This document shows, piece after piece, positions 2 through 15,231 of a stretch of DNA of 64,000 nt (positions are counted from its first letter, which is position 1; every line of letters begins with the position of its first letter). A program made the translations under genes and the position numbers. Below the pieces are notes generated by a model. It ran no database searches and had not been told where the DNA came from. It saw only the letters and a list, made by a program, of their open reading frames with translations. Origin of the DNA: a virus; the IMG/VR virus record IMGVR_UViG_3300021963_004854, positions 1 to 64,000 of that record; one strand, 5' to 3'.

Positions 2-109
2 ATTGGTGTAACTGTCACGCAAAATAACTTGACCGCTGCCGACTCTGCGAAAATGGAAATAACATGCACGACTGGACCATGTAATGGATACTCTTATACA
101 AAAAACTAA
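2..109 (+). CDS. 3' end of an upstream gene (partial), possibly a curlin-like/beta-repeat secreted protein
   Basis: Open frame IGVTVTQNNLTAADSAKMEITCTTGPCNGYSYTKN* ending TAA at 107-109 and overlapping the cyclase start; has a VTQ motif and a terminal Cys pair. Confidence 0.5.
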   Translation: MGVTVTQNNLTAADSAKMEITCTTGPCNGYSYTKN

Positions 110-2150
110 AAAAGTTCTACTCTCGCCTTGGTTGGCACTGATTACTTTTGCGGTATTGTTAACAGTAAAACTAGCAAACCCTTACTTGGTTGAATCCACA
201 AGATTGAAGTTTTATGATTATTTGATGCTCGGTTCGCCGACGCAATCCGAACAAATTGTAACTGTTAATATTGGGGAGAAAGCAATTGAAAAATATGGAC
301 AGTGGCCTTTCCCTCGCGAAGTCCACGCTAAAATTATTGGCGATATTTATGGCAGAGGGGCTGCTCTTGTTGGTAGCACTATACTTATGCCTGAGCCTGA
401 TAGGATGGGGACTGACGGAGTTCTTGCGAATTCCTTAACCAAATACCCAGTTGTTCTTAGTCAGACTGTGACGGCGGATTGCGGTCGACCATCCAGTCGC
501 GATGTTCGTCGGACAGGTGTTGCTGTCGTTGGCGACGGACAACCGACCGAATTTCTTCCTCAATATCCATGCGTTCTAAGTAATATTCCACCTCTTCAAG
601 AAGCCGCTGCCGGTGTTGGGATAACGTCAACCCTACCCGAGAGTGATGGGGTTGTAAGGCGAGTTCCTCTTCTATCTCAATCATCAGGCGAATACTATCC
701 CGCATTTGCTCTAGAGATGCTGCGTGTAGCTGCAGGAGACTCTTCATATCAAGCCAAGATAAATCAGACTGGGGTCGAAGCATTACGAATTCCTTCTTTT
801 GAAACAATTAAAACAGATGAATATGGAAGAACGTTTATCAATCCTAATTACCAATTTCCGTCATACGAAATTGGAAAGGATCCTTTACCTGTCCTGAGTG
901 GTAAAATCGTGATTCTTGGCGTAACTGCTGCTGGTATTTCGAATCCTGTAGCGACTCCATCAGGTGCGCAACATCCCCACGTCCTTCAGGCGAGTATTCT
1001 TGAAACTCTGATAAATGGGGATTCTGTTTCGATTCCGAACTGGTCAGTAATTGCTGATCTTGCGGCTTTTCTTGGTCTTGCTCTGGCATTGATTATTCTT
1101 TCGAGATTTCGTTTCTCTATAATTTATATCGGCATATTACTAGCTGGATATTTTTATCTGCCAGTATATCTGTTCGCCACAAAAAATATTCTCTTTGATG
1201 TAACTTTTAACATTTTTGCTATTGCTATTATCTACATTCATCTGTATACTGCTAAGTATATCTCAGAGTATCTACAGAAGCAACAGATTAAAAAGCAATT
1301 CGGTACATATCTATCGCCGGCAATGGTTGAGAAGCTCCAGAAGAATCCAGAGTTGTTGCAACTTGGTGGTGAATCCAGAGAGTTGTCAATTATGTTCACA
1401 GACGTTCGTGGCTTCACGACCATCTCAGAACACTACGGCAAGGACGTTCAAGGTCTAACAAAGATCATGAACAGATATATGACCGCGATGACTGCTAGAA
1501 TTATTGAGAATGAAGGTACTCTGGATAAGTATATTGGCGATGCTCAGATGGCATTCTGGAACGCGCCACTAGACGATAAAGACCATGCATTGAATGCCGT
1601 CCGCACTGGTATGGCAATGTTGACAGATTTAGAAAGATTTAATGATGAAGTTACTAGAGAAGGCATCCCTGCTTTTGGAATGGGCCTTGGTATCAATACT
1701 GACACCGTTGTCGTTGGCAACATGGGTTCTGATCAACGTTTTGATTATACCTGCCTTGGTGATGGAGTTAATCTCGCGAGTCGTCTTGAAGGCCAGTCTA
1801 AACCTTATGGTGTCAAGATCGTTATTGGACCAAAGACTGCGGAATATGTTTCTAACGAGTTCCAGGTAGTAGAACTTGATCTTATTGCGGTTAAGGGTAA
1901 AACCGAGCCAGTGAAGATTTACACTGTCCTCGACGAACGTGATACCCTAGGCGAAATGCAGCATGATAAGTTTCTAACTTTATATCGCGCCGGACATTGG
2001 GAAATAGCCAAAAAATTTGCCAGCGACTTAAAGAAGTGCTGGCAAGGTGAATTATCAGATTATTACGATTTGATGATTAGTCGTATCGAAGAGTTTGAGA
2101 CAACTCCGCCTGTAAATTGGGACGGGGTTTATCGGGCGACTTCGAAGTAA
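84..2150 (+). CDS. CHASE2-domain membrane adenylate/guanylate cyclase (class III)
   Basis: N-terminal TM; CHASE2 motifs GQWPFPR and DGVVRRVPL; three TM helices; catalytic motifs FTDVRGFT, DKYIGDAQMAFWNAP, DYTCLGDGVNLASRLEG, VKGK. Confidence 0.93.
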   Translation: MDTLIQKTKKVLLSPWLALITFAVLLTVKLANPYLVESTRLKFYDYLMLGSPTQSEQIVTVNIGEKAIEKYGQWPFPREVHAKIIGDIYGRGAALVGSTILMPEPDRMGTDGVLANSLTKYPVVLSQTVTADCGRPSSRDVRRTGVAVVGDGQPTEFLPQYPCVLSNIPPLQEAAAGVGITSTLPESDGVVRRVPLLSQSSGEYYPAFALEMLRVAAGDSSYQAKINQTGVEALRIPSFETIKTDEYGRTFINPNYQFPSYEIGKDPLPVLSGKIVILGVTAAGISNPVATPSGAQHPHVLQASILETLINGDSVSIPNWSVIADLAAFLGLALALIILSRFRFSIIYIGILLAGYFYLPVYLFATKNILFDVTFNIFAIAIIYIHLYTAKYISEYLQKQQIKKQFGTYLSPAMVEKLQKNPELLQLGGESRELSIMFTDVRGFTTISEHYGKDVQGLTKIMNRYMTAMTARIIENEGTLDKYIGDAQMAFWNAPLDDKDHALNAVRTGMAMLTDLERFNDEVTREGIPAFGMGLGINTDTVVVGNMGSDQRFDYTCLGDGVNLASRLEGQSKPYGVKIVIGPKTAEYVSNEFQVVELDLIAVKGKTEPVKIYTVLDERDTLGEMQHDKFLTLYRAGHWEIAKKFASDLKKCWQGELSDYYDLMISRIEEFETTPPVNWDGVYRATSK

Positions 2151-2217
2151 CTTCTAGTTCGTATAGTTCCTTCTCCATTTGAAGGAAATGTTCTTCTAGC
2201 TCTTCGTCGTTCAACAT
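2077..2217 (-). CDS. Small acidic hypothetical protein (46 aa, not in ORF track)
   Basis: MLNDEELEEHFLQMEKELYELEVTSK...LRYD*; ATG coupled to the previous stop (TAATG); overlaps the cyclase 3' end by 74 nt. Confidence 0.5.
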   Translation of the reverse strand: MLNDEELEEHFLQMEKELYELEVTSKSPDKPRPNLQAELSQTLRYD

Positions 2218-2432
2218 TAGAAACTTCTTCCGATTGTATGCTGACAAAATTGCCGAAATAGTTCCTCAAAATCGCCAGTCTTGTAGACCCATGCATCATA
2301 GAGACTCTGTGCGACAGGAATATCGCCACTTGACTTGCTAACGTAGTAACCTCGATCTGTGAGTTCTTCAATTAGTTCGCGGTCGTCAAAATCGTCCATG
2401 TAAACTTCGACTTCTGTAGTAATGCTAACCAT
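2217..2432 (-). CDS. Small acidic hypothetical early protein
   Basis: 71 aa, DDFDDRELIEEL; coupled to both neighbours by TAATG overlaps. Confidence 0.75.
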   Translation of the reverse strand: MVSITTEVEVYMDDFDDRELIEELTDRGYYVSKSSGDIPVAQSLYDAWVYKTGDFEELFRQFCQHTIGRSF

Positions 2433-2635
2433 TATGCAATCTTCCTTTTATATTCAACACGGTCTTCAAGATATTCTGTGAACGTAGCGTAGACAGGAAT
2501 GCCATTTGCTTCTAGTTCCGAATTCATTTCATCGAAGTCGGCACGTTCATACTGCCAACCATTCCATGGAACACCAAGCTGTTCAAGAAGGTGTTCTTCA
2601 CTTTCATTGATTTCGAGAATCATCACACTCTCCAT
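2432..2635 (-). CDS. Small acidic hypothetical early protein
   Basis: 67 aa, directly downstream of a near-consensus sigma70 promoter. Confidence 0.7.
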   Translation of the reverse strand: MESVMILEINESEEHLLEQLGVPWNGWQYERADFDEMNSELEANGIPVYATFTEYLEDRVEYKRKIA

Positions 2636-2648
2636 AACTTATATTCTA

Positions 2649-2677
2649 GTTATAAGCGATTCTAGACCAAATGTCAA
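2649..2677 (-). promoter_or_regulatory. Sigma70-type early promoter
   Basis: TTGACA-N17-TATAAC on the minus strand; GAATC in the spacer. Confidence 0.75.
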
Positions 2678-2691
2678 CCATTATTTTTCTA

Positions 2692-2720
2692 TTGACAATC
2701 TTGGCTATATGTTGTAATGT
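2692..2720 (+). promoter_or_regulatory. Sigma70-type promoter for the radical SAM operon
   Basis: TTGACA-N17-TAATGT, then GAGGAG RBS before ATG 2742. Confidence 0.55.
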
Positions 2721-2741
2721 GAAAGTCTTGAGGAGATTATT

Positions 2742-3143
2742 ATGTCAATGCATCTGTTAGGCCCAGCGTATACTACGACAAATACTAAGAAACGCAAAAC
2801 TGCAAACAAGGGTGTTACTAGTAGGTATGCGCAGGATTGGGTAGACTATAATAAGCAGATGAAAAAACTGGGTTGTAAGTCTAAGACTTTTGATGAATAT
2901 GTCGCATATCGTCAAGGTAAGTATAAACCTAAGTTGCGCGGCACACCTTTGCCGGAAGCATATAAGTCTGACCACCGTGAACGTTATAAATCAGTGGATG
3001 GTGTCGGCGTGACTTTCGCTAAGAAGCCCAATGAATACACTGGTACCCTGATTAAGGGTATTGCCACGATGCATAAATCTAATGCAGTACCAGTTATCAA
3101 TCAAGATCAGATGGAAGAAATTTCGAGGATGCGCCGTGGTTAA
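2742..3143 (+). CDS. Conserved hypothetical T4-like phage protein
   Basis: Strong RBS; basic protein with YTGTLIKGIATMHKSNAVPV motif. Confidence 0.8.
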   Translation: MSMHLLGPAYTTTNTKKRKTANKGVTSRYAQDWVDYNKQMKKLGCKSKTFDEYVAYRQGKYKPKLRGTPLPEAYKSDHRERYKSVDGVGVTFAKKPNEYTGTLIKGIATMHKSNAVPVINQDQMEEISRMRRG

Positions 3144-3714
3144 TTTTGACATTACAATGAAGTGGATGGAATACATCCGCAATAATCCAGAAAATGCATA
3201 TCGGTTCTCTGAAAACTTCTGGTCTAGTCAGATTGAAAGTAAGAAGTGGTTGCTTGAATGTATACCCGAAGACGCCCATACAATTTGTATTTTCGGTGGA
3301 TGGTATGGTATTCTAGCACAGTTTATTGCCGAGAAATTTCCCGACAGTTACATCGCAACAACTGACCTAGATCCTAGTTGCGAGGAAGTGTTCTATCAAA
3401 TTCGTACCAGCGATAACATTTATCATAAAACATGGAATATGCGAGATGGTATTCCTGATAGTTTGTGTCCAGACTTAGTAATCAATACAAGTAGCGAACA
3501 TGTGACGCAGGAAGTTTATGATGCTTGGTGGAACTCTATTCCAGCTGGTACTAAATACATCGTTCAAGGAAACAATCTAGAAAATCCCGAACATGTTCGA
3601 ACGTCAGATACTCTAGATGAATTTTTGAAAATTAACAAGATTAAAGACCCGCAGTATGCAGGAATGTTGCGCTGCGGTCATTTTTATAGGTTTATGGCGA
3701 CAGGTGTTAAATGA
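3136..3714 (+). CDS. Class I SAM-dependent methyltransferase-like protein
   Basis: ICIFGGWYG motif I, acidic DLD, DLVINTSSEH; likely GTG start at 3136 after GAGG. Confidence 0.75.
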   Translation: MVNFDITMKWMEYIRNNPENAYRFSENFWSSQIESKKWLLECIPEDAHTICIFGGWYGILAQFIAEKFPDSYIATTDLDPSCEEVFYQIRTSDNIYHKTWNMRDGIPDSLCPDLVINTSSEHVTQEVYDAWWNSIPAGTKYIVQGNNLENPEHVRTSDTLDEFLKINKIKDPQYAGMLRCGHFYRFMATGVK

Positions 3715-5135
3715 GCGATAATATTAGAGGTGACGAAGTTACGCCAGACTTAAAGGGCGCCTACAAAAGTGTTTATTTTGAAAACACTAAAGATATGCTA
3801 GATGGTCTTAATAAAGTTAGTCCGTCATTCTGTCTTGCTAAGTGGTTTAATGTAAGCATTCACATTCCAACTGGTAGAACCCACAGTTGTTATCACCCAC
3901 AGACCCACAAAGTTCCTCTAGAAGAACTTGCTGCGGATCCGGGTGCTTTGCATAATACAAAGTATAAGAAAGAACAACGAAAGAAGATGTTGATGGGTGA
4001 AAGACCCAAGGAATGCTCTTTCTGTTGGGATATTGAAGATACTGGTAATATGAGCGATAGAGCATATCGCAGTTTTGATGTTAATGCACCGGGAGTAATC
4101 GATGAAGCCCTAGCAGTTGGTTTTGAGGGTAATCCGGCTCCAAAATATCTTGAGGTAAACTTCAATCAAGCATGTAACTTTAAATGTGCTTATTGTTCAC
4201 CTCACTTGTCAACTGAATGGCACAAAGAAGTTAAAGAGCATGGTCCATTCAAATTAGTAGACCGGACTCACAACGACGATAGTTGGATGAAGGCACAGGG
4301 CTGGGTTCCAGACAACTCACCGACTAATCCATATTTGACTGCATTCTGGGAGTGGTTCCCTACTGTCTATGACAAACTGAAAACGTTTAGAATGACGGGT
4401 GGTGAGCCATTGATGGACAAAAACACATTTAAGATTTTTGACCATGTGAAGAAGAATCCAAAAAAGGATCTTCAACTAAGCATTACTAGCAACTGTTGTC
4501 CACCAAAAGGCCAGTGGCAAAAGTTTATCGATGACTTGAAAGAAATTACAGACCAAGATGCTATTGATCATTTCATGTTGTTCTGTAGTCTAGATACTTG
4601 GGGTAAACAGGCAGAATATATCAGGACTGGTCTAGACTTTGATGTATTACATAAGAATATTACTCAATATCTGAGAGAATCTAATAAACATTCTTTGACT
4701 TTTATTATTACATGTAATATTCTATGTTTGCCTAATTGGATGACATACTTCCAAAATATTCTGGAACTTAGAAAGACATATAACACAGATAGACAGTTGA
4801 TTTGGTTTGATACTCCTATGCTTACTGACCCAAAGTGGATGAGCATGAAGTTGGCATCTAAAGAAATGCTACAGCCTCTTCTGGACAGCATTGCATTTAT
4901 GGAAGCAAATAAAGAGACAGTAGAAAATCGTTTCAAGGGTTTCAAAGACTATGAAATCGATAAGGTTCAACGTTTGTATGACTGGGCTGTAGAGCCTATG
5001 TCTAAGGAAGACGAAATTCTCTACAAGAAAAACTTCTATAAATATTTCGAACAATACGATGCCAGACGGAATCTTAATATCAGAGAAACTTTTCCAGAAC
5101 TGGTTCACTTTATCGATGACTGCGGGAAATTATAA
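3711..5135 (+). CDS. Radical SAM protein with N-terminal twitch-like auxiliary Fe-S domain (1)
   Basis: CNFKCAYC, GGEP; N-terminal FCLAKW..SCYH..CSFCW. Confidence 0.9.
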   Translation: MSDNIRGDEVTPDLKGAYKSVYFENTKDMLDGLNKVSPSFCLAKWFNVSIHIPTGRTHSCYHPQTHKVPLEELAADPGALHNTKYKKEQRKKMLMGERPKECSFCWDIEDTGNMSDRAYRSFDVNAPGVIDEALAVGFEGNPAPKYLEVNFNQACNFKCAYCSPHLSTEWHKEVKEHGPFKLVDRTHNDDSWMKAQGWVPDNSPTNPYLTAFWEWFPTVYDKLKTFRMTGGEPLMDKNTFKIFDHVKKNPKKDLQLSITSNCCPPKGQWQKFIDDLKEITDQDAIDHFMLFCSLDTWGKQAEYIRTGLDFDVLHKNITQYLRESNKHSLTFIITCNILCLPNWMTYFQNILELRKTYNTDRQLIWFDTPMLTDPKWMSMKLASKEMLQPLLDSIAFMEANKETVENRFKGFKDYEIDKVQRLYDWAVEPMSKEDEILYKKNFYKYFEQYDARRNLNIRETFPELVHFIDDCGKL

Positions 5136-6664
5136 TGACTGACAAATTGAAGAACCACGGTGGTTCTCTTCATACTTACAAGAATGAATTCATCAACAAG
5201 CTAAGTCCATCTTTCTGTGGCGCTAAATGGTACAATGCAACTATTTGGCTTGGTACTGGGCAGACCGCTAGTTGCCATCACCCGCCCGCACATGCGATCG
5301 ATCCTAAAGAACTAGAGACAAATCCTTCTGCAATTCATAATACGCAACACAAAAAGCAGATGCGTAAGTTGATGCAAGAAGGCGTTCGTCCTAATGAGTG
5401 TGAATATTGCTGGAAAATCGAAGACATGGGTAAGGATAGTATTTCCGACCGTGTTATGAAATCAATTACATTCACCGACGAAGAAAATGTCGAAGCGCAG
5501 AATATGCCATGGGATTCAGATGTTCAACTAAGAACTCTTGAAATTAGCTTTGATAGAACTTGCAATTTTGCATGTTCGTATTGTAATCCATCCTTTAGCA
5601 CTTCCTGGGTGCGTGATATCAAGCAAAATGGTCCGTATCAGAATATTCAGAGTGACGGTCGCGGTCACTATGTTTCGTCTCATGATCATGCCAAGGGATT
5701 CAACAGCGAAGATAATAATCCCTATATTCAGGCATTCTGGAAATGGTTCGAGGGTGACCTATCGGAGCATCTAAGAGAATTGCGTATTACTGGTGGTGAA
5801 CCTCTGATGGCACCAAGTGTATGGAAGCTATTCGACTGGTTCAAAGATAATCCAGAACGAGCGCAGAAGTTGAATTTTGCCATCAATTCTAACATGCATC
5901 CTAAACAAGAGTTGCTAGACAGATTGATTGAAAAATCACATAATGTTCCTGTGCTAGATGTATATACTAGCATGGAAAGCGTGGGTAGTATGGCGGAATA
6001 CATTCGTGACGGTCTAGACTATGCTCAATGGTTTAAAAATGTTGAGCGTCTGATTAAAGAGGGTAATGTCCGTCAGATGATTTGTATGTCAACCATCAAT
6101 GGACTATGTTTACCGGGTCTAGTAGATTTTCTAACTGAAATGCGCTACTTCAAAAAGACTTACGGTTGGCAATACATGACTGTATCGTTGAACGTTCTAC
6201 GTTTTCCTAGTTTCCAGTCTTGTGCGATGTTGCCAGATGAAATCAAGATGAAATACAAGAATGAGTTGCAACAGTGGTACGATAACGTCAAAGCAAATCT
6301 TACAACAGACCTTGACCCGACCGGCAAACCTCTGTATAATCAGTGGGAACTTTCGCAGGTCGAAAGACTGATTGATTATTTAGATATTATTAAGACACCT
6401 CACGCATTTACCGCGGAGACTCCGAAACTGTATAACGATTTTAAGCAATATTATTTACAGTATGACCGTCGTCGCGGCAAGAATTTCAGAGAAACATTTC
6501 CAGTAGAATATGTTGATTTTATCAACTCTATTCCGGGTGATGATCCGGTCGCTCTTATTAAAGTGCAGGAAGAAAATCTTATTCCCAAGTTGATTCCAGA
6601 TGAAGTGTTACATGATATTAAAACAGGCGGCGGCTATGTTAGTGATGAGTTAAAGAATGAGTGA
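5135..6664 (+). CDS. Radical SAM protein with N-terminal twitch-like domain (2)
   Basis: CNFACSYC, GGEP; FCGAKW..SCHH..CEYCW. Confidence 0.9.
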   Translation: MTDKLKNHGGSLHTYKNEFINKLSPSFCGAKWYNATIWLGTGQTASCHHPPAHAIDPKELETNPSAIHNTQHKKQMRKLMQEGVRPNECEYCWKIEDMGKDSISDRVMKSITFTDEENVEAQNMPWDSDVQLRTLEISFDRTCNFACSYCNPSFSTSWVRDIKQNGPYQNIQSDGRGHYVSSHDHAKGFNSEDNNPYIQAFWKWFEGDLSEHLRELRITGGEPLMAPSVWKLFDWFKDNPERAQKLNFAINSNMHPKQELLDRLIEKSHNVPVLDVYTSMESVGSMAEYIRDGLDYAQWFKNVERLIKEGNVRQMICMSTINGLCLPGLVDFLTEMRYFKKTYGWQYMTVSLNVLRFPSFQSCAMLPDEIKMKYKNELQQWYDNVKANLTTDLDPTGKPLYNQWELSQVERLIDYLDIIKTPHAFTAETPKLYNDFKQYYLQYDRRRGKNFRETFPVEYVDFINSIPGDDPVALIKVQEENLIPKLIPDEVLHDIKTGGGYVSDELKNE

Positions 6665-7982
6665 ACGTAAAAGAGACTATCTCTTTTTCAAAAAGTCTGT
6701 ATTGGATAAAATAAGCGGAACATTTTGTGCGGCAAAATGGTACGAAGTTACTCTTTGGTTATACATGGGTTCCAATGCGAGTTGCCACCACAATCCAACT
6801 CATAGAAATGATTCTGTTGATGATCCCAGTCTTCTTCATAATACAGAACAGAAAATAGCAGAACGAAAGCAAATGCTGGCGGGTGAGAGAGTTGGTGGCT
6901 GTCAATATTGCTGGAATGCAGAAGATTCGGGTATTATCTCTGATAGAATAATGAAATCCTATGGTTATGCGTGGGATGATATGAAAAAAGATATACCACT
7001 AAAAGTAAATCCGAAAAAAATTGAGGTTGCTTTTAGTAGATCGTGTCAATTAGCGTGTGCTTATTGTAGTCCAACTTTTAGTTCTAGTTGGGCAAATGAC
7101 GTTACTGCTAATGGCTCCTACAATCTAACAACAAATACTCGATTTAATAAAGATATCAAAAACAAGTTGATTCCTGACGATGATAACAAGTATATTCAGG
7201 CGTTTTTTGATTGGTGGCCAGAACTCAAAAAAGACTTGTCAGTAGTTCGGTTCACGGGTGGCGAACCATTACTGCATCCTAGATTCTGGGAATTTTTAGA
7301 TGTTCTCCATAAAGATCAAGACTATATTGGAGACTTTATTGTAAACTCCAACTTGATACACGAAAAGGGTCAGGTACAAAAGTTTATTGATAAGACAAGA
7401 TATCTAACAGAGAACGGTAAGAATGTAGAAATACATACAAGCTGCGAATCTAGTTTAGACCATGCAGAATATACTAGAGATGGATTTGACGGTAAAGTAT
7501 GGTTAAAAAATGTTAATGATGTATTAGCGAACAGTGACATTAAAATTACTGTTACTACTGCGATAAACAATATGTCGGTGTGGTCTTTTGGTGAATACCT
7601 TAAAATGATTTCGCAATTGAAAGACAAGTATGGTACAGATAGGGTAACAACTAATTTCAATCGCGTATTGTATCCCCAGTGGCATTCTCTAGCAATATTA
7701 CCACAAAAATTAAGAATTGAAATCGCAAATGATCTTAAATTGGTTTTTGATGATTTAGAAAATCTTCAAGACGATAAATCAATTATGCCATTTCAGGATC
7801 TCTATGACTATCTAAGAAATACTAAATTTCATGATATGATATATTCTGAAAAACAAGTTCTTAAAGATGCTGTCAGTTTTTACGACCAATTTAATAAAAG
7901 ACGAAATAAAGATATTTCTGTTTTAGATCCAAGATACGTTAAATGGATTGAACAGACGAGATTGGAACTTGACAATGAGTGA
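6657..7982 (+). CDS. Radical SAM protein with N-terminal twitch-like domain (3)
   Basis: CQLACAYC, GGEP; FCAAKW..SCHH..CQYCW. Confidence 0.9.
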   Translation: MSERKRDYLFFKKSVLDKISGTFCAAKWYEVTLWLYMGSNASCHHNPTHRNDSVDDPSLLHNTEQKIAERKQMLAGERVGGCQYCWNAEDSGIISDRIMKSYGYAWDDMKKDIPLKVNPKKIEVAFSRSCQLACAYCSPTFSSSWANDVTANGSYNLTTNTRFNKDIKNKLIPDDDNKYIQAFFDWWPELKKDLSVVRFTGGEPLLHPRFWEFLDVLHKDQDYIGDFIVNSNLIHEKGQVQKFIDKTRYLTENGKNVEIHTSCESSLDHAEYTRDGFDGKVWLKNVNDVLANSDIKITVTTAINNMSVWSFGEYLKMISQLKDKYGTDRVTTNFNRVLYPQWHSLAILPQKLRIEIANDLKLVFDDLENLQDDKSIMPFQDLYDYLRNTKFHDMIYSEKQVLKDAVSFYDQFNKRRNKDISVLDPRYVKWIEQTRLELDNE

Positions 7983-9246
7983 TAGACCCGAAAAACTATG
8001 TATGATTCCTTGGGTTGGATTCAGTAATAATCCCTCTGGCTTGGCACAACCTTGCTGCTTATTTAAAGGCCATATTACAACTAACCGAGGCAATAACATG
8101 TATGTGCAAGAGCATTCGGTTAAGGATATTTTCACTAGCAAATACATGAAGGACCTTCGTCAACAATTTCGAGATGGAAAGCAACCAGAGGGTTGCTCAA
8201 CATGTTGGACAGATGAGAACAACGGATATACTAGCAAAAGAACTTTATATAATTCGCAAGTTTATCCTATGTTGGGTGTAGATGTTGACTGGCAAGATGA
8301 GCCAGAATATCCAGCTGAATACCAGATGATTATTAGTAATAGTTGCAATTTAAAATGCAGATCGTGTAGTCCGAGCCATAGCACACTGTGGCAACAAGAG
8401 TTGAAAAAATATACTGGCTCGACTCAATTTGAAATGCCGCACAAGCAAGCTGGTGATGAAAATGGCATGCTCTGGAAAACTAGACATGACTGGTATAAAA
8501 ATCTTCGCCGAATTGAAGTTGTTGGTGGTGAGCCGATGTATATCAAACAATGGCACAAGATATTTGATGAATTGATTGAGACTGGCAGATCAAAAGAAAT
8601 TGCTCTTGATATGTCTACCAACTGTAATATCATTCTTCCAGAATTGGTGCAGAAATGGATTGACAACTTTGAAAGAGTTGGTATAGGTCTAAGTGTAGAT
8701 GGAATCGGTCCCACATATAATTATATGCGTCATCCTGGAAACTGGGACGTTGTATATAACAATATGAAAACATATAACCAGATACAACACAGAAATGCTC
8801 CTTATTCACCAGACAAGAAGTTTTTCTTCCAAATAAGTTTTACTTTAAGCTGGGTAAATGCATTAGATTTGACAAGAATGCATGATTTATTGAAGAGCGA
8901 TTTTCCCACTTCGAAGATATGGAATAATTTAGTTCACTATCCCGAATGGATGTCCCTCAAGAATGCACCAGAAAAACTAAAAGGTTACCTGTATTCTATC
9001 TGGAGCCAATATGACTGGGGAGACTATCAATCTGATATTGATTCGATTATTAACTTTATGTTTTCTAATAAAGTATCAGATGAACAGTTTAAAGAATATT
9101 TTAAGCAAAATGAGATTATAGATAGTAGAAGAAGTGAAAAGCTATTTGATGTTGTACCAGAATATAAGTTCTTATTATCGGAGTTTGTAAATGAAGAATT
9201 TGATCAATCATATACGGAAGATTATTCAGACGATTATCCAAAATAG
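7975..9246 (+). CDS. Radical SAM protein with N-terminal twitch/SPASM-like domain (4)
   Basis: CNLKCRSC, GGEP; LCMIPW..PCC..CSTCW; likely ATG at 7975. Confidence 0.9.
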   Translation: MSDRPEKLCMIPWVGFSNNPSGLAQPCCLFKGHITTNRGNNMYVQEHSVKDIFTSKYMKDLRQQFRDGKQPEGCSTCWTDENNGYTSKRTLYNSQVYPMLGVDVDWQDEPEYPAEYQMIISNSCNLKCRSCSPSHSTLWQQELKKYTGSTQFEMPHKQAGDENGMLWKTRHDWYKNLRRIEVVGGEPMYIKQWHKIFDELIETGRSKEIALDMSTNCNIILPELVQKWIDNFERVGIGLSVDGIGPTYNYMRHPGNWDVVYNNMKTYNQIQHRNAPYSPDKKFFFQISFTLSWVNALDLTRMHDLLKSDFPTSKIWNNLVHYPEWMSLKNAPEKLKGYLYSIWSQYDWGDYQSDIDSIINFMFSNKVSDEQFKEYFKQNEIIDSRRSEKLFDVVPEYKFLLSEFVNEEFDQSYTEDYSDDYPK

Positions 9247-9304
9247 AAAACATAAAAAAAGATTAAAAGAATTAAGAAAAATGGATCCGTTCATTTATGA
9301 CTAA
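9191..9304 (+). CDS. 37-aa basic peptide ending DPFIYD (not in ORF track)
   Basis: GGAG RBS; MKNLINHIRKIIQTIIQNRKHKKRLKELRKMDPFIYD*; bridges rSAM4 and the SGNH gene, overlapping both. Confidence 0.7.
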   Translation: MKNLINHIRKIIQTIIQNRKHKKRLKELRKMDPFIYD

Positions 9305-10121
9305 AAATTTTCCATATAAAAGAATAATTAGTTATGGGTGCAGTCTCACTGCGGGGTCAGAACTGACAGACCATGAATTTCTTGGAATTACAGAAGATGC
9401 ACTTTTTGATCTTGTAAAAAAACGCAATATGAAGGGTTCGCATGAAGTTTTTCAGTTTTTTAAACTCACTTCAAATGCACATAAACAACTCCTAGCTAAA
9501 AATGCCGCCGCCAGCTGGCCAAATTACGTTGCGCAAAATTTTAATGTCCCCCTAGTTAATAGGGCAATGCCCGGTACCAGTTTAAGTCATGCCACCTATA
9601 ATATTCTACATGATTTACATTACAATGCGATTGAACCAGATGATTTAATACTAGTCGGAATAACATCTCATCCTCGGTGGTTTCAATTCACTGAACAAGG
9701 AGAAAAATTTGGCGGTGTATTTGGATTTCTGGGCGATGGTGAATATGTCAAACAATTAGAACTTGAATGGGCAAATCCTTATAACTTAATGTATACTCAC
9801 TATAAAGAAATAGCATTTCTTTCGGGACTTTCTGATAGACTTAATGGTCAAATAAAAATATGCTATGCATTCGGAACACCCGAATATCTGAAACATTCTT
9901 ATGGGCCAGAATTGAAAGAAAAAAAGTTTTCCGAATTTTATCAATTTGCGCTTTCCTTATATCCGCGTCATAACTTTATCGACCACACAACATCGATAAG
10001 TGAATTGGCTAGTTGGATTCATCCGACTAAACATCATGTTTTCGGTCATCCTAGGGTACAATATCATAAAATTTTTGCTAATATCATATCGGAAAATCTG
10101 GAAAAAATGTATAATGATTGA
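9297..10121 (+). CDS. SGNH/GDSL hydrolase-like protein
   Basis: Block I YGCSLTAG, block II NRAMPGTS, C-terminal GHP...H. Confidence 0.7.
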   Translation: MTKNFPYKRIISYGCSLTAGSELTDHEFLGITEDALFDLVKKRNMKGSHEVFQFFKLTSNAHKQLLAKNAAASWPNYVAQNFNVPLVNRAMPGTSLSHATYNILHDLHYNAIEPDDLILVGITSHPRWFQFTEQGEKFGGVFGFLGDGEYVKQLELEWANPYNLMYTHYKEIAFLSGLSDRLNGQIKICYAFGTPEYLKHSYGPELKEKKFSEFYQFALSLYPRHNFIDHTTSISELASWIHPTKHHVFGHPRVQYHKIFANIISENLEKMYND

Positions 10122-11544
10122 ATGGGGTATATCCGCTGCTGCACATGATGCGTCATTGACTGTCGTTTCTGACAACGAAATTTTGTTTGCGTCTCACGCA
10201 GAGAGATATTCTGGAGTCAAGAATGATAAAGACCTTAATGCAGATTTAATTCACGCCGCATTAAAATTTGGTAAGCCAGAAAAGATTCACTGGTACGAAA
10301 AGCCAAAACTTAGAGCAATGCGAAGACTGTTAGCTGGACAGGGTTTGATTAGATTTAGTGTTCGACAATACTTGGAACATTTTGGACTAAAAGATATTCC
10401 AGTCGAGTTTGCACATCATCATGAATCACATGCAGCGGCAGGATTTTACACTTCGCCGTATGATGATGCAACCGCTCTTGTTATTGATGCTATTGGCGAA
10501 TTCGATACAGCATCAATCTGGAAATGCTCTGGTAGTAAACTCAAAAAGAAATGGTCGATGGACTATCCCAAGTCTTTGGGACTGTTCTATTCTGCTATGA
10601 CAGACCGAGTTGGTCTTAAAGCAAACGAAGATGAATATATCTTAATGGGAATGGTAGCATATGGTGACCCTGAAAAATATTACGACGAAGTTAGAAATCT
10701 TTGGGAATCTGAGAACCTTCATCGGGGATGCCGTTGGTGGAATCCTAATGGGGATCTTGATGTGTATAGTGTTGCAGCGGCAACACAACGAGTATATGAA
10801 GAAGAATTTGAAAAACTACTGATACGCGCAAAGATGAAAGATACTTTCCAAGACAATCTCGTTCTTATGGGTGGATGTGCGCTAAACTGTAGTGCAAATC
10901 ATATTGCTACAAAATACTTTAAGAATATTTGGATAATGCCAAATCCAGGTGATGCTGGAAGTTCTCTGGGTGCAATTGCTGCTAACAACAGACAGAAGTT
11001 AAACTGGAAGGGTCCGTATCTCGGCGCAAACATGGGTGGTGAATATCCCATAGAAAAACTCTTGACAGAATTGCGTAAGACTGGTATAGTAGGAGTTGCT
11101 AATGGACCAGCGGAGTTCGGTCCAAGGGCATTAGGTAATCGCAGTCTTCTAGCTGATCCTCGCGGTCACGATATCAAGGATAGAGTCAATGAAATCAAGC
11201 AACGACAGAAGTTTAGACCATTCGCACCCCTCATTATGGCAGAACATGCACACGACTATTTTGACCTACCAGTTGAAGAATCCCCTTATATGCAATTTAC
11301 TGCACGATGTAAATACCCTGATAGGTTTCCTGCTATTGTCCATGCAGATGGGACTTCTCGTGTCCAGACTGTAACATTTGAGCAACACCCTCAACTATAC
11401 AATCTTCTACATACCTGGCATCTTGAAACTGGCTGTCCGATGCTATTGAATACTAGTCTCAATATCAAAGGTATGCCCATGGTGAACAACTTTAAAGACG
11501 CGGATGACTTCGAAGCCAAATATGGCGTGAAAGTCTTTTCCTAA
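10114..11544 (+). CDS. Carbamoyltransferase, CmcH/NodU/TobZ family
   Basis: HDAS, HHESHAA, DAIGE, EYILMG, GGCALN, PGDAG, EFGPRALGNRS, RPFAP, DGTSRVQTV, LNTSLN; likely ATG at 10114. Confidence 0.93.
   Translation: MIEWGISAAAHDASLTVVSDNEILFASHAERYSGVKNDKDLNADLIHAALKFGKPEKIHWYEKPKLRAMRRLLAGQGLIRFSVRQYLEHFGLKDIPVEFAHHHESHAAAGFYTSPYDDATALVIDAIGEFDTASIWKCSGSKLKKKWSMDYPKSLGLFYSAMTDRVGLKANEDEYILMGMVAYGDPEKYYDEVRNLWESENLHRGCRWWNPNGDLDVYSVAAATQRVYEEEFEKLLIRAKMKDTFQDNLVLMGGCALNCSANHIATKYFKNIWIMPNPGDAGSSLGAIAANNRQKLNWKGPYLGANMGGEYPIEKLLTELRKTGIVGVANGPAEFGPRALGNRSLLADPRGHDIKDRVNEIKQRQKFRPFAPLIMAEHAHDYFDLPVEESPYMQFTARCKYPDRFPAIVHADGTSRVQTVTFEQHPQLYNLLHTWHLETGCPMLLNTSLNIKGMPMVNNFKDADDFEAKYGVKVFS
11062..11090 (+). 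promoter_or_regulatory. Internal sigma70 promoter within the carbamoyltransferase gene
   Basis: TTGACA-N17-TATAGT with extended -10 TG. Confidence 0.6.
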
Positions 11545-11555
11545 TAAATATTTGC

Positions 11556-11825
11556 ATGAGTAATATTCTACAGTTCCCGGACAAGTTTCGTAAGGAACCT
11601 AGACACTATCGAATCCCATTGTATACCGATGAGGATATTAATGTTGTGTTATTTTGCCTCAATGCATTTGGAAATAGCGACAAAAGAATTATCTTTGATG
11701 ATTTATTAGAATTAGACCCTATTGATGTGATGGAATGTCTTGACTTTGCCGTAGAATCTGATATGATATCAACTATGACTAAAGAACATATACATTGCAT
11801 TCGTAAATCTGTGGAAGAAAGTTAA
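11556..11825 (+). CDS. Hypothetical protein
   Basis: 89 aa ORF after a TAATAAATA late-like promoter. Confidence 0.7.
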   Translation: MSNILQFPDKFRKEPRHYRIPLYTDEDINVVLFCLNAFGNSDKRIIFDDLLELDPIDVMECLDFAVESDMISTMTKEHIHCIRKSVEES

Positions 11826-11831
11826 TATATT

Positions 11832-12380
11832 ATGAATATCTTTTATCTTGATCGTGACGTTACAAAATGTGCCGAATATCATAATGACAAACATGTTGTC
11901 AAAATGATTCTTGAGTATGCACAACTACTGTCTACTGCGCACCGTGTTCTGGACGGTACTGAGTATACAGACAAGACTGCCAATGGCAGGTCAATCAAAC
12001 GTTGGCGATTAGAGGACAAAGCCTTTGAAGCGGAACTTTACAAAGCTACGCACATCAATCATCCGAGTGCTGTCTGGGTTCGTCAGTCTAACAATAATTA
12101 TAACTGGCTTGTATGTCTATTCCAATCCCTTCTTACAGAATACACTCATCGATATGGCAAACTTCATTCTTGCGAACGACTAGTATATTGGTTGCGTAAA
12201 CCACCCAAGAATATTCCTGTCAGTCATCTTACTCAGCCGACGCCCGCTATGCCAGAAGAATACAAGGTACAGAATGACTCTCTACAGTCATATCGTAACT
12301 ATTATATTGGTGCGAAAAAAAGTATGGCAAAATGGAAAAATCGTGAAATTCCTTGCTGGTGGAGAGACGCTACTCAATAA
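11832..12380 (+). CDS. denV: Pyrimidine dimer DNA glycosylase / endonuclease V-like
   Basis: MNIFYLD..DKHVVKMILEYAQLLSTAH, HINHPSAVWVR, YRNYY. Confidence 0.8.
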   Translation: MNIFYLDRDVTKCAEYHNDKHVVKMILEYAQLLSTAHRVLDGTEYTDKTANGRSIKRWRLEDKAFEAELYKATHINHPSAVWVRQSNNNYNWLVCLFQSLLTEYTHRYGKLHSCERLVYWLRKPPKNIPVSHLTQPTPAMPEEYKVQNDSLQSYRNYYIGAKKSMAKWKNREIPCWWRDATQ

Positions 12381-12444
12381 ATAACTGCATGAAGACAGTT
12401 ATACCGATTTCACCCTCTAGTATTTCAAGTGCCTCTCTCGGCAC

Positions 12445-12477
12445 AGGCGACTCTGCTCTTGCAGGGTCGCCTTTTTT
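12445..12477 (+). terminator. Intrinsic terminator-like hairpin upstream of phoH
   Basis: AGGCGACTCTGC-TCTT-GCAGGGTCGCCT followed by a T run. Confidence 0.7.
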
Positions 12478-12506
12478 GTATCAACCTCAAACCTCAAAGG
12501 ACTGTC

Positions 12507-13271
12507 ATGTCAAGAAAAAACCAGAACAAATTACAAGTTGTCTCAACAAATGACTCCCCTGTAACCTTAGAGAAGAGTAAACTATGCAGAGTAAAATATG
12601 ACGACCTCAAGCATATTCAACCAAAGAACTTCAATCAGAGACAATTTTTTGAATTATACGATCAACAGTCCACAGCAATTTTATTACACGGTGTAGCAGG
12701 AACAGGGAAGACCTACATCGCACTTTATAAAGCATTAGAGGAAGCACTAGATCCAGAAACATCTTTCGACCGAGTTATCATTGTTCGCTCGGCCGTGCCA
12801 TCACGAGAAATCGGTCACTTGCCGGGTGACGAAAAAGAAAAGACAGAAGTTTATCAGTTGCCTTATGTAGAAATCTGCGAGGATTTGTTTAATCATATCC
12901 AGCCATTTCAGCGATTGCAAGAACAGAAGTCGGTGAACTTTATGATCACCTCATTTGTTCGTGGTATCACTCTAGATAATTCCATCGTCATTGTTGATGA
13001 ATGTCAAAATATGACGGACATGGAACTCAATTCAATCATGACTAGAATCGGGAAAAACTCAAAGGTCATCTTCTGCGGAGATTTCCGTCAGACCGACCTA
13101 TATAAAAAGAACGATATGTCAGGACTTCAAAAGTTCATGGCAATCGCCGAACTAATGCCTTCGTTCAAAACACTAGAGTTTTCAGTTCATGATATTGTTC
13201 GTTCCAAATTGGTAAAGGAATATATTCTCGCAAGGCTCGAATATGAAGAAAGATATTTAGAAACCGCTTGA
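12507..13271 (+). CDS. phoH: PhoH-family ATPase
   Basis: Walker A GVAGTGKT, IGHLPG, RGITL, VDECQN, GDFRQTD, DIVRS; AAAGGA RBS before ATG 12507. Confidence 0.93.
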   Translation: MSRKNQNKLQVVSTNDSPVTLEKSKLCRVKYDDLKHIQPKNFNQRQFFELYDQQSTAILLHGVAGTGKTYIALYKALEEALDPETSFDRVIIVRSAVPSREIGHLPGDEKEKTEVYQLPYVEICEDLFNHIQPFQRLQEQKSVNFMITSFVRGITLDNSIVIVDECQNMTDMELNSIMTRIGKNSKVIFCGDFRQTDLYKKNDMSGLQKFMAIAELMPSFKTLEFSVHDIVRSKLVKEYILARLEYEERYLETA

Positions 13272-14569: not shown

Positions 14570-14735
14570 TTTCTCAGAAGTAGAACGCCGATTAAACATA
14601 TGCAAAACTTGTCAATTCAAGAGAATGGGAGTTTGTATGAAATGTGGCTGCATTATTGTAACAAAAGTTAGAGTTTCTTCTGCAAAATGTCCGGTTGGCA
14701 AATGGGAATCTCTTGACAATCAAGAGCAAACCTGA
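14559..14735 (+). CDS. Small Cys-rich metal-binding protein (58 aa, DUF6171-like; not in ORF track)
   Basis: RLNICKTC..CMKCGC..KCPVGKW; overlaps the oxygenase stop. Confidence 0.7.
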   Translation: MLTDFSEVERRLNICKTCQFKRMGVCMKCGCIIVTKVRVSSAKCPVGKWESLDNQEQT

Positions 14736-14743
14736 TATAAATA
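14713..14743 (+). promoter_or_regulatory. Composite sigma70 plus T4 late promoter for the tmRNA
   Basis: TTGACA-N17-TATAAA, where the -10 box is part of TATAAATA. Confidence 0.7.
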
Positions 14744-14747
14744 AATT

Positions 14748-15053
14748 ATCAGTTGTTGACAGGCAACAATAAAGGCGGAAAGACGCGGGTGCAACTCCCG
14801 CCACCTCCACCATAGATACACCAAGGTCCGACCCGAAAGGGGTGCCTACTAAAGTGAGGGATGATGGTGTATCTATTATGGGGGTGAACTAGGATCGATT
14901 TTCGTGTAATAGGAAGTCCGAGACTGATTGCTTGGCAAAGTGCCACTAAAAGTAAATGCAAACGATAACGTTGCCTTTGCAGGATATGCGCTAGCCGCAT
15001 GATCCCATTGGGTTTTTGATAGTTTTCCCTCGAAACAGAATAAAACTATCACC
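14748..15053 (+). ncRNA. ssrA: Circularly permuted two-piece tmRNA (alphaproteobacterial type)
   Basis: T-arm and acceptor 3' strand CACCTCC-A-CCA end at 14812, upstream of the 5' strand GGGGGTG (14880-14886); G3.U pair; tag frame 14958-15002 reads ANDNVAFAGYALAA*; 3' hairpin with AACAGAA loop motif. Confidence 0.92.
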
Positions 15054-15231
15054 TGTTCTTCATATACGACGAAATGCGTGGAAGTAGAACTTAGAAACGC
15101 TAAATAGTTATATGACCCGAAGTGTGTAACTGAATAAGCCAAACACAGCGGGTCTTTTTGTCTTCGGACAAATCAGTGTGGGGAGTCACTGGCTAATACC
15201 CTCTCAAGTTTAACAACCAAATGGAAATAAG

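Follow-up and report, generated by a model that had tools for sequence, protein, structure and literature searches.

A run of four paralogous radical SAM (rSAM) enzymes, packed together with a methyltransferase-like, an SGNH-like and a carbamoyltransferase gene in a viral genome, raises the question of which substrate is modified by the encoded proteins. The genome is that of an uncultured T4-like phage (171,566 bp, CheckV completeness estimate 100%), and its first 64,000 nucleotides constitute the stretch analyzed, referred to as the window. We lean towards a swappable sugar-tailoring cassette, the product of which would most likely be a surface glycan, either of the host envelope or of the virion.

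The operon comprises seven genes on the plus strand (window positions 3136-11544). The gene content given in the preliminary description was confirmed: a methyltransferase (MT)-like gene (3136-3714), the radical SAM genes rS1 (3711-5135), rS2 (5135-6664), rS3 (6657-7982) and rS4 (7975-9246), the SGNH-like gene (9297-10121), and an O-carbamoyltransferase gene of the NodU/TobZ/NovN/GdmN type (10114-11544). That description also had every junction overlapping, which holds for five of the six internal junctions (4, 1, 8, and 8 nt from MT/rS1 to rS3/rS4, and 8 nt between the SGNH-like and carbamoyltransferase genes); rS4 and the SGNH-like gene are separated by an A-rich 50-nt spacer (9247-9296, plus strand), the sole nonoverlapping junction. 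A 7-codon mini-ORF (9281-9304) starts within this spacer and overlaps the SGNH start. At its 5' end, the MT-like gene overlaps by 8 nt the gene for a basic protein of 133 amino acids (p133, 2742-3143, plus strand, phrog_27048), which marks the island's conserved left edge and has homologues upstream of the array in loci L005, L008, L051, and L090. The C-terminal motif of p133 recurs in Delftia phage phiW-14, a phage with hypermodified thymine, which provides a weak link to DNA-base modification. The island extends from p133 to the DenV-like/PhoH genes, away from the fibre and glycosyltransferase (GT) genes, and the operon neighbors are early-type accessory genes (cyclase, DenV-like, PhoH). A promoter and terminator scan of positions 2000-12500 performed no better than chance. 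Near position 2694 there is a TTGACA with a weak -10 element, and the intergenic region upstream of the operon lacks the TATAAATA late-type motif; both are only hints at early expression. Megablast with the operon as query gave no match in 50,697 phage records, a set from which near relatives may be missing, and in a tblastn search of phage records with rS1, Ralstonia phage RsoM2USA was the sole match.

Each of rS1-rS4 carries the CxxxCxxC motif, GGEP, and four auxiliary cysteines upstream of the core (C41, C60, C102, and C105 in rS1, preceding C155/C159/C162). In a comparison of 144 family members, the radical SAM motif and the auxiliary cysteines were invariant or nearly so, and no further conserved cysteine was present C-terminal to the radical SAM core. 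In agreement, Pfam finds SPASM in rS4 at residues 9-78, ahead of Radical_SAM (118-269). The permuted twitch architecture pointed out previously is thus confirmed; it already defines the NCBIfam family NF033640 (N_Twi_rSAM) and is therefore no new observation. All four enzymes match this family far above chance (E values of 3e-74 to 5e-95), with 318.8 (rS1), 300.6 (rS2), 250.5 (rS3), and 291.3 bits (rS4) against a curated whole-protein cut-off of 170 bits, and the alignments span practically the entire model (positions 1-2 to 394-397 of 398). A search of the phage's own genome retrieved exactly these four members. The paralogues are diverged, with rS2-rS4 sharing 29-36% identity with rS1. The latter has an 86% identical counterpart in the closest relatives (L005), orthologues of rS2 occur in L051 (71% identity) and at a second site of RsoM2USA (52%), rS3 is sister in the tree to the copies from L051 and L014, which keep the same gene order, and rS4 represents a separate, old subfamily. 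Among sequence clusters at 50% identity, 9,144 matched the NF033640 profile at E ≤ 1e-30.

The MT-like gene may start with GTG at 3136 or ATG at 3157; the former is favored because homologues align through the residues before 3157. Its product had no Pfam, NCBIfam, or PHROG match. The label methyltransferase, given to it earlier, draws on the conserved motifs (FGGWYG and D70-x-D72), a weak PDB profile match to the putative methyltransferase 3dtn (E = 1e-3), and a language-model (Atlas) lead to Methyltransf_31, which together suggest that the protein probably adopts a class I SAM fold. Homologues adjoin N_Twi genes in seven viral loci and in RsoM2USA. The SGNH label stands at the level of the fold. 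The protein had no match in Pfam (including Lipase_GDSL), NCBIfam, or PHROG; a PDB profile search for its family yielded nothing useful, and the fold was assigned from an AF2 model (pLDDT 70.6, pTM 0.75) and Foldseek instead. The top matches were the CE2 esterase 2w9x (E = 7e-5) and GDSL enzymes at a probability of about 1.0, alongside acetyl-xylan esterases, TesA, and PatB (E values of 7e-5 to 5e-3, at TM scores of only 0.4-0.6). With moderate confidence, the product of 9297-10121 is predicted to have an SGNH alpha/beta fold and to be a probable O-acyl esterase or transferase. G14, S16 (in G-C-S), H251, and H257 are invariant in the family, and neither a block III Asn nor a block V Asp is conserved. 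Since the best fold match is a carbohydrate esterase, the protein was counted in favor of sugar tailoring. The carbamoyltransferase was identified with Carbam_trans_N (7.4e-37, 128 bits, cut-off 24 bits), Carbam_trans_C (7.5e-52, 175.8 bits, cut-off 27 bits), and phrog_1601 (6e-98), and its PDB matches were NovN (3e-50), GdmN (1e-47), and TobZ (7e-35). The solved relatives all O-carbamoylate hydroxyl groups, and two of them act on sugars.

The genes that accompany the family elsewhere point to carbohydrates. Of the 58 viral loci with enough upstream sequence, 47 have GT8-like (glycogenin-like) genes no more than 6 kb upstream of the array, the viral loci being mutually related so that counts over them do not represent independent events; the GT8-like profile matched glycogenin at E = 8e-10. 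Other arrays also hold genes for UDP-glucose/GDP-mannose dehydrogenase and a nucleotidyltransferase-kinase, and canonical C-terminal SPASM genes (cluster 6), absent from the window, are present in arrays of relatives. In most phage loci, fibre-like genes precede the array, first c5, whose product has a Peptidase_G2 chaperone domain, and then c4. The commonest gene ahead of rS1 orthologues belongs to cluster c1, which matched nothing in Pfam, PHROG, or PDB and whose profile showed no similarity to that of the GT8-like genes. RsoM2USA carries two GT8-like genes, c1, N_Twi, c1, and MT at one site, and an rS2-like gene, two SGNH-like genes, and a carbamoyltransferase gene, ordered as in the window, at the other. 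RsoM2USA_349 and RsoM2USA_202 are N_Twi genes of this phage, and RsoM2USA_199 is its carbamoyltransferase gene. Relatives with 83-94% identical flanks hold different rSAM sets at the same locus; this resembles surface-glycan loci and was therefore counted for sugar tailoring. Of 80 viral loci, only 12 contain the carbamoyltransferase, and the MT and SGNH genes are likewise confined to a minority. Independent assortment of the genes across genomes, named at the outset as an argument against a common pathway, thus applies in part, namely to the accessory genes, and their minority spread fits swappable tailoring cassettes and not one fixed pathway.

In P0153, c1 and an N_Twi domain form a single protein. 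Other domain fusions add to the picture of carbohydrate tailoring: the best library matches to the family profile included one protein each with GT2-type domains (Glyco_tranf_2_2 and Glyco_transf_7C) ahead of the N_Twi part (P0201), a GT2 domain after it (P0228), and a GNAT domain ahead of it (P0219). The nearest cellular homologues were almost all from Bdellovibrionota, including 1.8-2.5 Mb chromosomes and a cultured Bdellovibrio. An origin of these matches from mis-binned phage contigs was rejected where the homologue lies on a chromosome (contigs of 0.9-2.5 Mb) but accepted for L090, L102, L104, L106, L138, and L139. In the Bdellovibrionota locus L155, the gene order is GT1, two unknowns, carbamoyltransferase, GT1, DegT aminotransferase, N_Twi, and N_Twi; in L113, an N_Twi gene overlaps a GT2 gene, and in L121 it overlaps both its upstream neighbor, an SPASM rSAM gene, and its downstream neighbor, a GT1 gene. 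The nonredundant immediate neighbors in bacteria (n = 142) comprised 10 GT1, 6 GT2, 3 GDP-mannose-dehydratase/epimerase, and 2 ABC-2 proteins, and five contained the peptide-recognition domain PqqD. Of the two targets suggested in the preliminary description, a glycan or a DNA base, the glycan is thus supported by the GT2 fusions, by the GT and sugar-enzyme neighbors in bacteria, and by the GT8-like neighbors in phages.

The phage's own genome is less accommodating. It has a separate glycosyltransferase set beside its fibre genes (at about 49-54.5 kb), the presence of which was counted for sugar tailoring. This set is about 40 kb from the operon, no glycosyltransferase gene adjoins the operon within the window, and profile comparisons detected no similarity between the set and either the GT8-like or the c1 family. 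Their distance and their unlikeness to the GT8-like genes were counted against sugar tailoring. Searches of the genome revealed neither a sugar aminotransferase nor a sugar nucleotidyltransferase, and its only SDR epimerase-family gene is located at about 114 kb. The AF2 model of rS1 (pLDDT 95.6) also retrieved peptide-modifying enzymes (SkfB, SuiB, anSME) in a tie with sugar- or nucleotide-modifying ones (BlsE, MoaA, viperin, DesII) at Z scores of 11-13, SkfB being the top structural match (Z = 13.3), and peptide-acting and sugar-acting relatives were not separable by structure searches with this model. Together with PqqD among the bacterial neighbors, this tie was likewise counted against sugar tailoring.

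Both observations favor an explanation that we nevertheless consider unlikely: the target of the rSAMs is a protein or peptide, such as a virion fibre protein or a small precursor, in which they might cross-link or epimerize residues and which the MT-like, SGNH-like, and carbamoyltransferase proteins would decorate further. Most characterized SPASM/twitch enzymes act on peptides, and the best PDB sequence match of the family profile is 8vpo (TigE by its PDB title), which is cited in papers on RiPP-maturing rSAMs. The position of the array after c5 and c4 in most phage loci would also suit this explanation, but both fibre-like genes are absent from the genome studied here. Whereas RiPP-maturing rSAM systems have an RRE/PqqD domain and a precursor gene in the operon, no RRE or PqqD was detected in the seven window proteins (Pfam, E ≤ 0.01), and no precursor-like small gene was noticed in the operon, the mini-ORF in the rS4/SGNH spacer being the only small frame noted. 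Elsewhere in the family, some members may still act on peptides, given the PqqD proteins encoded beside some bacterial homologues. The fusions to GT2 and GNAT domains and the GT, DegT, and NDP-sugar-enzyme neighbors indicate carbohydrates instead, and the solved carbamoyltransferase relatives use small-molecule or sugar hydroxyls.

Alternatively, the product could be a free small molecule and not a surface glycan: the operon would then make or alter a metabolite resembling an aminoglycoside or a nucleoside, or a modified nucleotide for host takeover. The closest solved carbamoyltransferases, NovN, GdmN, and TobZ, belong to antibiotic pathways, BlsE, MoaA, viperin, and DesII all stand near the top of the structural matches of rS1, and the early-type surroundings of the operon with no upstream late-type motif would be compatible with such a role. 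Its probability is nonetheless low, as Pfam and NCBIfam searches revealed no scaffold-forming enzyme (cyclitol synthase, PKS, NRPS) in the operon, the glycosyltransferases found as fusions or neighbors are of the polysaccharide type, with ABC-2 transporter neighbors, and cassette swapping among close relatives better suits surface structures. Hypermodification of a DNA base, for example carbamoylation of 5-hydroxymethylcytosine (5hmC) after radical SAM chemistry, is very improbable: a phage carbamoyltransferase making 5-carbamoyloxymethylcytosine has been published, but a thymidylate-synthase-like hydroxymethylase accompanies it (Yang et al. 2021, PMC8670742), the DNA-base half of the earlier suggestion is not supported because the complete-estimated 171,566-bp genome gave no match to this family (PF00303) in a search that did retrieve it from control genomes, the chromosomal Bdellovibrionota copies reside in glycosyltransferase operons, and only the lack of a Tet_JBP match in the genome, from a search without a positive control, is uninformative.

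The analysis establishes family membership, motifs for cluster binding, the packing of the operon, gene context, and fusions. For sugar tailoring, a course of events can be proposed in which we infer the substrate class (from gene context alone), the individual reactions, and the location of the final product. Each rSAM probably generates a 5'-deoxyadenosyl radical by means of SAM and the cluster bound to its CxxxCxxC motif. The radical would abstract hydrogen from a different sugar carbon in each enzyme, with a nucleotide-sugar or an assembled glycan as substrate, and the auxiliary cluster bound by four cysteines would act as electron acceptor or substrate anchor. Oxidation, epimerization, deoxygenation, or C-C bond formation are possible outcomes, as in BtrN, DesII, AprD4, and BlsE. 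The MT-like protein, the SGNH esterase/acyltransferase, and the O-carbamoyltransferase would then decorate hydroxyl or amino groups. A bolder version, tentative and in our view doubtful, is that N-terminal-twitch rSAMs constitute a combinatorial radical glycan-editing toolkit, in which each paralogue would carry out its specific C-H functionalization on an assembled sugar chain or a glycosylated fibre protein, and which phages and predatory Bdellovibrionota would shuffle as cassettes to diversify the surface coat. Such a toolkit would amount to post-assembly carbohydrate chemistry without characterized precedent. If N_Twi enzymes edit sugars, carbohydrate biochemistry would gain several new radical reactions, and a hypervariable part of phage host-recognition regions, so far annotated just as radical SAM, could be explained. 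The family is very large and abundant in aquatic phages and predatory bacteria. With four rSAMs and three tailoring enzymes, the window offers a compact test set, and homologues are available in the culturable systems Ralstonia phage RsoM2USA and Bdellovibrio sp. HCB2-146, the latter with an N_Twi-GT2 pair.

Compared with known systems, rS1-rS4 share with NF033640 the N-terminal four-cysteine twitch motif, CxxxCxxC, and GGE. The family bears a descriptive name only, with no function assigned, and its definition does not include tandem arrays, a phage setting, or partner genes; a full-text literature search found no paper naming it. In canonical SPASM/twitch enzymes of the BtrN and anSME type, the auxiliary domain is C-terminal, whereas the auxiliary cysteines of rS1-rS4 are N-terminal. 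BtrN and BlsE contain a single auxiliary [4Fe-4S] cluster (twitch), in a domain that follows the core and does not precede it as in rS1-rS4. The enzymes acting on sugars or sugar nucleosides (BtrN, BlsE, DesII, AprD4) have the radical SAM core in common with rS1, and BlsE (Z = 13.2) and DesII (Z = 11.3) are among its best structural matches, but the identity is only 10-16% and the Foldseek TM score about 0.3.

The phage carbamoyltransferase has both the Kae1-like N domain and the YrdC-like C domain of the NodU/TobZ type, and its HHHESH stretch, which by analogy with TobZ is a putative Kae1-type metal-binding site, aligns with the same region of NovN. At 476 amino acids, it is about 100-200 residues shorter than TobZ, NovN, GdmN, and NodU (576-702), and with 133.1 bits against a cut-off of 1000 for the NodU equivalog NF041651, it is a relative of NodU and not NodU itself. 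The 5hmC carbamoyltransferase is likewise phage-encoded and from the same superfamily, but requires 5hmC from a thymidylate-synthase homologue, of which the genome studied here has none, and the term radical SAM has 0 occurrences in the paper describing it (PMC8670742). Radical SAM cassettes in a host-recognition cluster were mentioned in passing for pelagimyophages in 2020, in a paper that analyzes neither the rSAM family nor its architecture and function (Zaragoza-Solas et al., PMC7029224). That setting fits most of the viral loci found here, whereas the cassette of the window occupies another island, away from fibre and GT genes.

The operon comprises seven intact genes on the plus strand (3136–11544), which encode a methyltransferase-like protein (MT, 3136–3714), four radical SAM (rSAM) paralogues (rS1 to rS4), an SGNH-like protein (9297–10121), and a carbamoyltransferase (10114–11544). 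At its left border, the gene for a 133-amino acid protein (p133; 2742–3143, plus strand) overlaps the MT gene by 8 nt, followed by overlaps of 4, 1, 8, and 8 nt; the final junction again overlaps by 8 nt. The preliminary description had every junction overlapping, which holds except between rS4 and the SGNH-like gene, where a 50-nt A-rich gap (9247–9296) was found. A mini-ORF of seven codons (MDPFIYD; 9281–9304, plus strand) begins within this gap, the only one in the operon, and its last part extends over the start codon of the SGNH-like gene.

Each rSAM protein contains CxxxCxxC and GGEP motifs with four Cys residues upstream of the core; rS2–rS4 share 29–36% identity with rS1. Alignment of 144 members of the family, drawn from phage as well as bacterial loci, showed C41, C102, C105, C155, C159, C162, and G230-G231-E232 to be invariant and C60 nearly so, and Pfam placed a SPASM match (residues 9–78) ahead of Radical_SAM (118–269) in rS4. 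The N-terminal position of the auxiliary Cys set, as initially proposed, was thus confirmed. This N-terminal-twitch architecture is real but already catalogued: all four proteins matched NCBIfam NF033640 (N_Twi_rSAM, twitch domain-containing radical SAM protein; here N_Twi) with 250–319 bits at a cut-off of 170 bits. A full-text literature search retrieved no paper naming NF033640, and the family is catalogued but uncharacterized. The rS1 model was confident (pLDDT 95.6, pTM 0.93) and remote from every solved structure (Foldseek best E 3e-4, TM about 0.3); with an exhaustive structure aligner, SkfB, BlsE, MoaA, SuiB, viperin, anSME, and DesII tied at Z 11–13, mostly across residues ~120–440 (core and downstream part) and not the N-terminal twitch. 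Because of this remoteness and tie, the predicted structure confirms the superfamily and the SPASM/twitch neighbourhood only, and does not separate a peptide from a sugar or nucleotide substrate.

The carbamoyltransferase assignment is secure: both Pfam domains and phrog_1601 (6e-98) were matched, and the solved relatives NovN, GdmN, and TobZ (3e-50 to 7e-35) are all O-carbamoyltransferases, two of the three acting on sugar hydroxyls. The SGNH assignment stood at the level of the fold, but searches of Pfam, PHROG, and NCBIfam gave no family match. The predicted structure, based on nine homologues (pLDDT 70.6, pTM 0.75), matched SGNH enzymes only, with a CE2 carbohydrate esterase on top (E 7e-5) and acetyl-xylan esterases and the peptidoglycan O-acetyltransferase PatB further down the list. 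The Ser of G-C-S and two His are invariant, but the Asn and Asp typical of SGNH enzymes were not observed. The methyltransferase-like annotation, based on conserved FGGWYG and D-x-D motifs, a weak PDB profile match, and a language-model lead, is the least certain annotation.

The source record (171,566 bp, complete by CheckV estimate), whose initial 64 kb form the window, represents a T4-like myovirus, with baseplate, hub, and terminase genes matching PHROG families and a large terminase sharing 49% identity with its counterparts in Synechococcus myoviruses; no near relative was visible in the phage record collection searched. G+C content drops to 36% at 6–10 kb versus roughly 40–43% in the flanks. 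Upstream lies a gene for a 688-amino acid protein that combines a CHASE2 sensor domain with the catalytic domain of an adenylate/guanylate cyclase (84–2150, plus strand; phrog_35576, 790 bits), conserved at 83–84% in the related loci L005 and L090; downstream are genes for a DenV-like pyrimidine-dimer glycosylase and a PhoH-like protein (11832–13271, plus strand), and a strong terminator-like hairpin (12445–12472) is found in this stretch. ARAGORN called a permuted, two-piece tmRNA gene at 14720–15093 (plus strand) with the tag peptide ANDNVAFAGYALAA. Over its C-terminal ~37 residues, p133 shares 59–73% identity with hypothetical proteins from Delftia phage phiW-14, Acidovorax phage ACP17, and phage C48C1.

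Between conserved flanks, the content of the locus is exchanged. L005 and its near-copies share with the window the cyclase (83% identity), p133 (88%), rS1 (86%), and the carbamoyltransferase (94%). In these relatives, the stretch from p133 to the carbamoyltransferase contains six other N_Twi genes, two rSAM genes of the canonical type with C-terminal SPASM, and two SGNH-like genes, and lacks MT. L090, a phage contig assigned to a Bacteroidetes MAG, has flanks 84–86% identical to the window; MT is present there, the rSAM set differs, and SGNH and carbamoyltransferase genes are missing. In L051, L014, and L032, the order rS1-rS2-rS3-rS4 is kept and extra copies are added. In the N_Twi tree, each window paralogue groups with its positional counterpart; rS1, rS2/rS3, and rS4 form old, separate subfamilies, and phage and bacterial sequences interleave. 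L090, L102, L104, L106, L138, and L139 are bacterial MAG contigs (labelled Bacteroidetes, Haliscomenobacter, Betaproteobacteria, Pelagibacter, and Rickettsiales) with phage gene sets, either a fibre-like/GT8-like/N_Twi block or the window's flanking genes at 84–86% identity, and are probably mis-binned phage DNA.

A search of one genome per species yielded 148 cellular stretches encoding relatives; the best 79 of the 148 were almost all from Bdellovibrionota, including complete chromosomes and a cultured Bdellovibrio. In L155, the order is GT1, two unknowns, carbamoyltransferase, GT1, DegT sugar aminotransferase, and two N_Twi genes; in L113, an N_Twi gene overlaps a GT2 gene, and in L121 one overlaps both of its neighbours, SPASM rSAM on the upstream side and GT1 on the downstream side. 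The genes directly adjoining N_Twi in 66 bacterial loci (142 non-redundant neighbours) were scanned in one batch; the commonest families were further Radical_SAM/SPASM (13/10), GT1 (10), GT2 (6), and PqqD (5), followed by GDP-mannose dehydratase/epimerase (3), methyltransferases (3), and ABC-2 transporters (2). From the GT1 and GT2 counts, glycosyltransferases amount to ~11% of neighbours versus roughly 1–2% of bacterial genes, the latter being a general figure and not a matched baseline. The N_Twi profile retrieved 9,144 proteins (E ≤ 1e-30) among 1.84 billion representatives. Representatives P0121–P0270 included double and triple N_Twi proteins of 800–1200 amino acids and fusions in which N_Twi follows GNAT (P0219) or c1, a family described below (P0153); a partial subtilase-like segment fused to N_Twi was also observed. 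Of all the evidence, two independent fusions to glycosyltransferase domains, GT2-type domains followed by N_Twi (P0201) and N_Twi followed by GT2 (P0228), point most directly to a carbohydrate as substrate.

In viral contigs, 109 rS1 relatives were detected and 80 of these loci kept. Mapping of the window proteins revealed one to eight N_Twi genes per locus, mostly in tandem arrays; the carbamoyltransferase occurred in 12 loci, with MT and SGNH-like genes likewise in a minority. Other arrays hold a B12-binding rSAM, UDP-glucose/GDP-mannose dehydrogenase, and nucleotidyltransferase-kinase. Clustering of all ORFs gave a conserved block upstream of most arrays: fibre-like genes with a Peptidase_G2 intramolecular-chaperone domain (cluster c5), c4, c3, c2, c2, and c1. 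The c2 profile matched glycogenin (GT8, E 8e-10). Of the 58 loci whose upstream sequence extended for 6 kb or more, 47 had a c2 gene no further than 6 kb from the first N_Twi gene. The c1 family (~300 amino acids, conserved D-G-D-N and R-E-G-x-K; for example L013:9088–9999, L085:9004–9957 and 11362–12063) precedes the rS1 orthologue in 62 of the 80 loci and had no match in Pfam, PHROG, or PDB. The sole cultured phage with an rS1 match was the Ralstonia jumbo phage RsoM2USA. At ~217 kb it carries c5-like, c4, c3, c2, c2, an unclustered gene, c1, N_Twi, c1, and MT, with c1 thus on both sides of N_Twi; at ~124 kb it has an rS2-like gene (52%), two SGNH-like genes, and a carbamoyltransferase gene (49%), with a DenV-like gene three genes further on. 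The latter order is that of the tail of the window operon; that so different a phage has retained it speaks for a joint function of the rSAM, SGNH-like, and carbamoyltransferase genes.

The operon probably tailors a glycan, and the likeliest reading, held with moderate confidence, is a swappable sugar-tailoring cassette whose product would end up on a surface, host envelope or virion. The virion is suggested by a separate glycosyltransferase set beside the fibre genes of the same genome and by the fibre genes adjoining most other N_Twi arrays; an early, host-directed role is suggested by the early-type accessory genes around the operon and by the intergenic region upstream of it, in which no late-type TATAAATA was found. 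Neither is decisive. The genome's sole SDR epimerase/dehydratase-family gene (113852–114382, 260-amino acid frame) is far from the operon as well as from the glycosyltransferase set. A protein or peptide substrate is rather unlikely, and a free metabolite as product marginally more so. Tailoring of a DNA base, also proposed initially, is very improbable: phage carbamoyltransferases can indeed modify 5hmC, but the published enzyme pairs with a thymidylate-synthase-like hydroxymethylase (PMC8670742), and the genome had no PF00303 match where control genomes did (a Tet_JBP search, run without positive control, also gave none). As for the favoured sugar-tailoring cassette, the window operon occupies a different island, apart from fibre and glycosyltransferase genes, and is particular in its compact four-enzyme rSAM set with MT, SGNH, and carbamoyltransferase partners; the viral N_Twi block in general matches the "host recognition cluster" of pelagimyophages (Zaragoza-Solas et al., PMC7029224).
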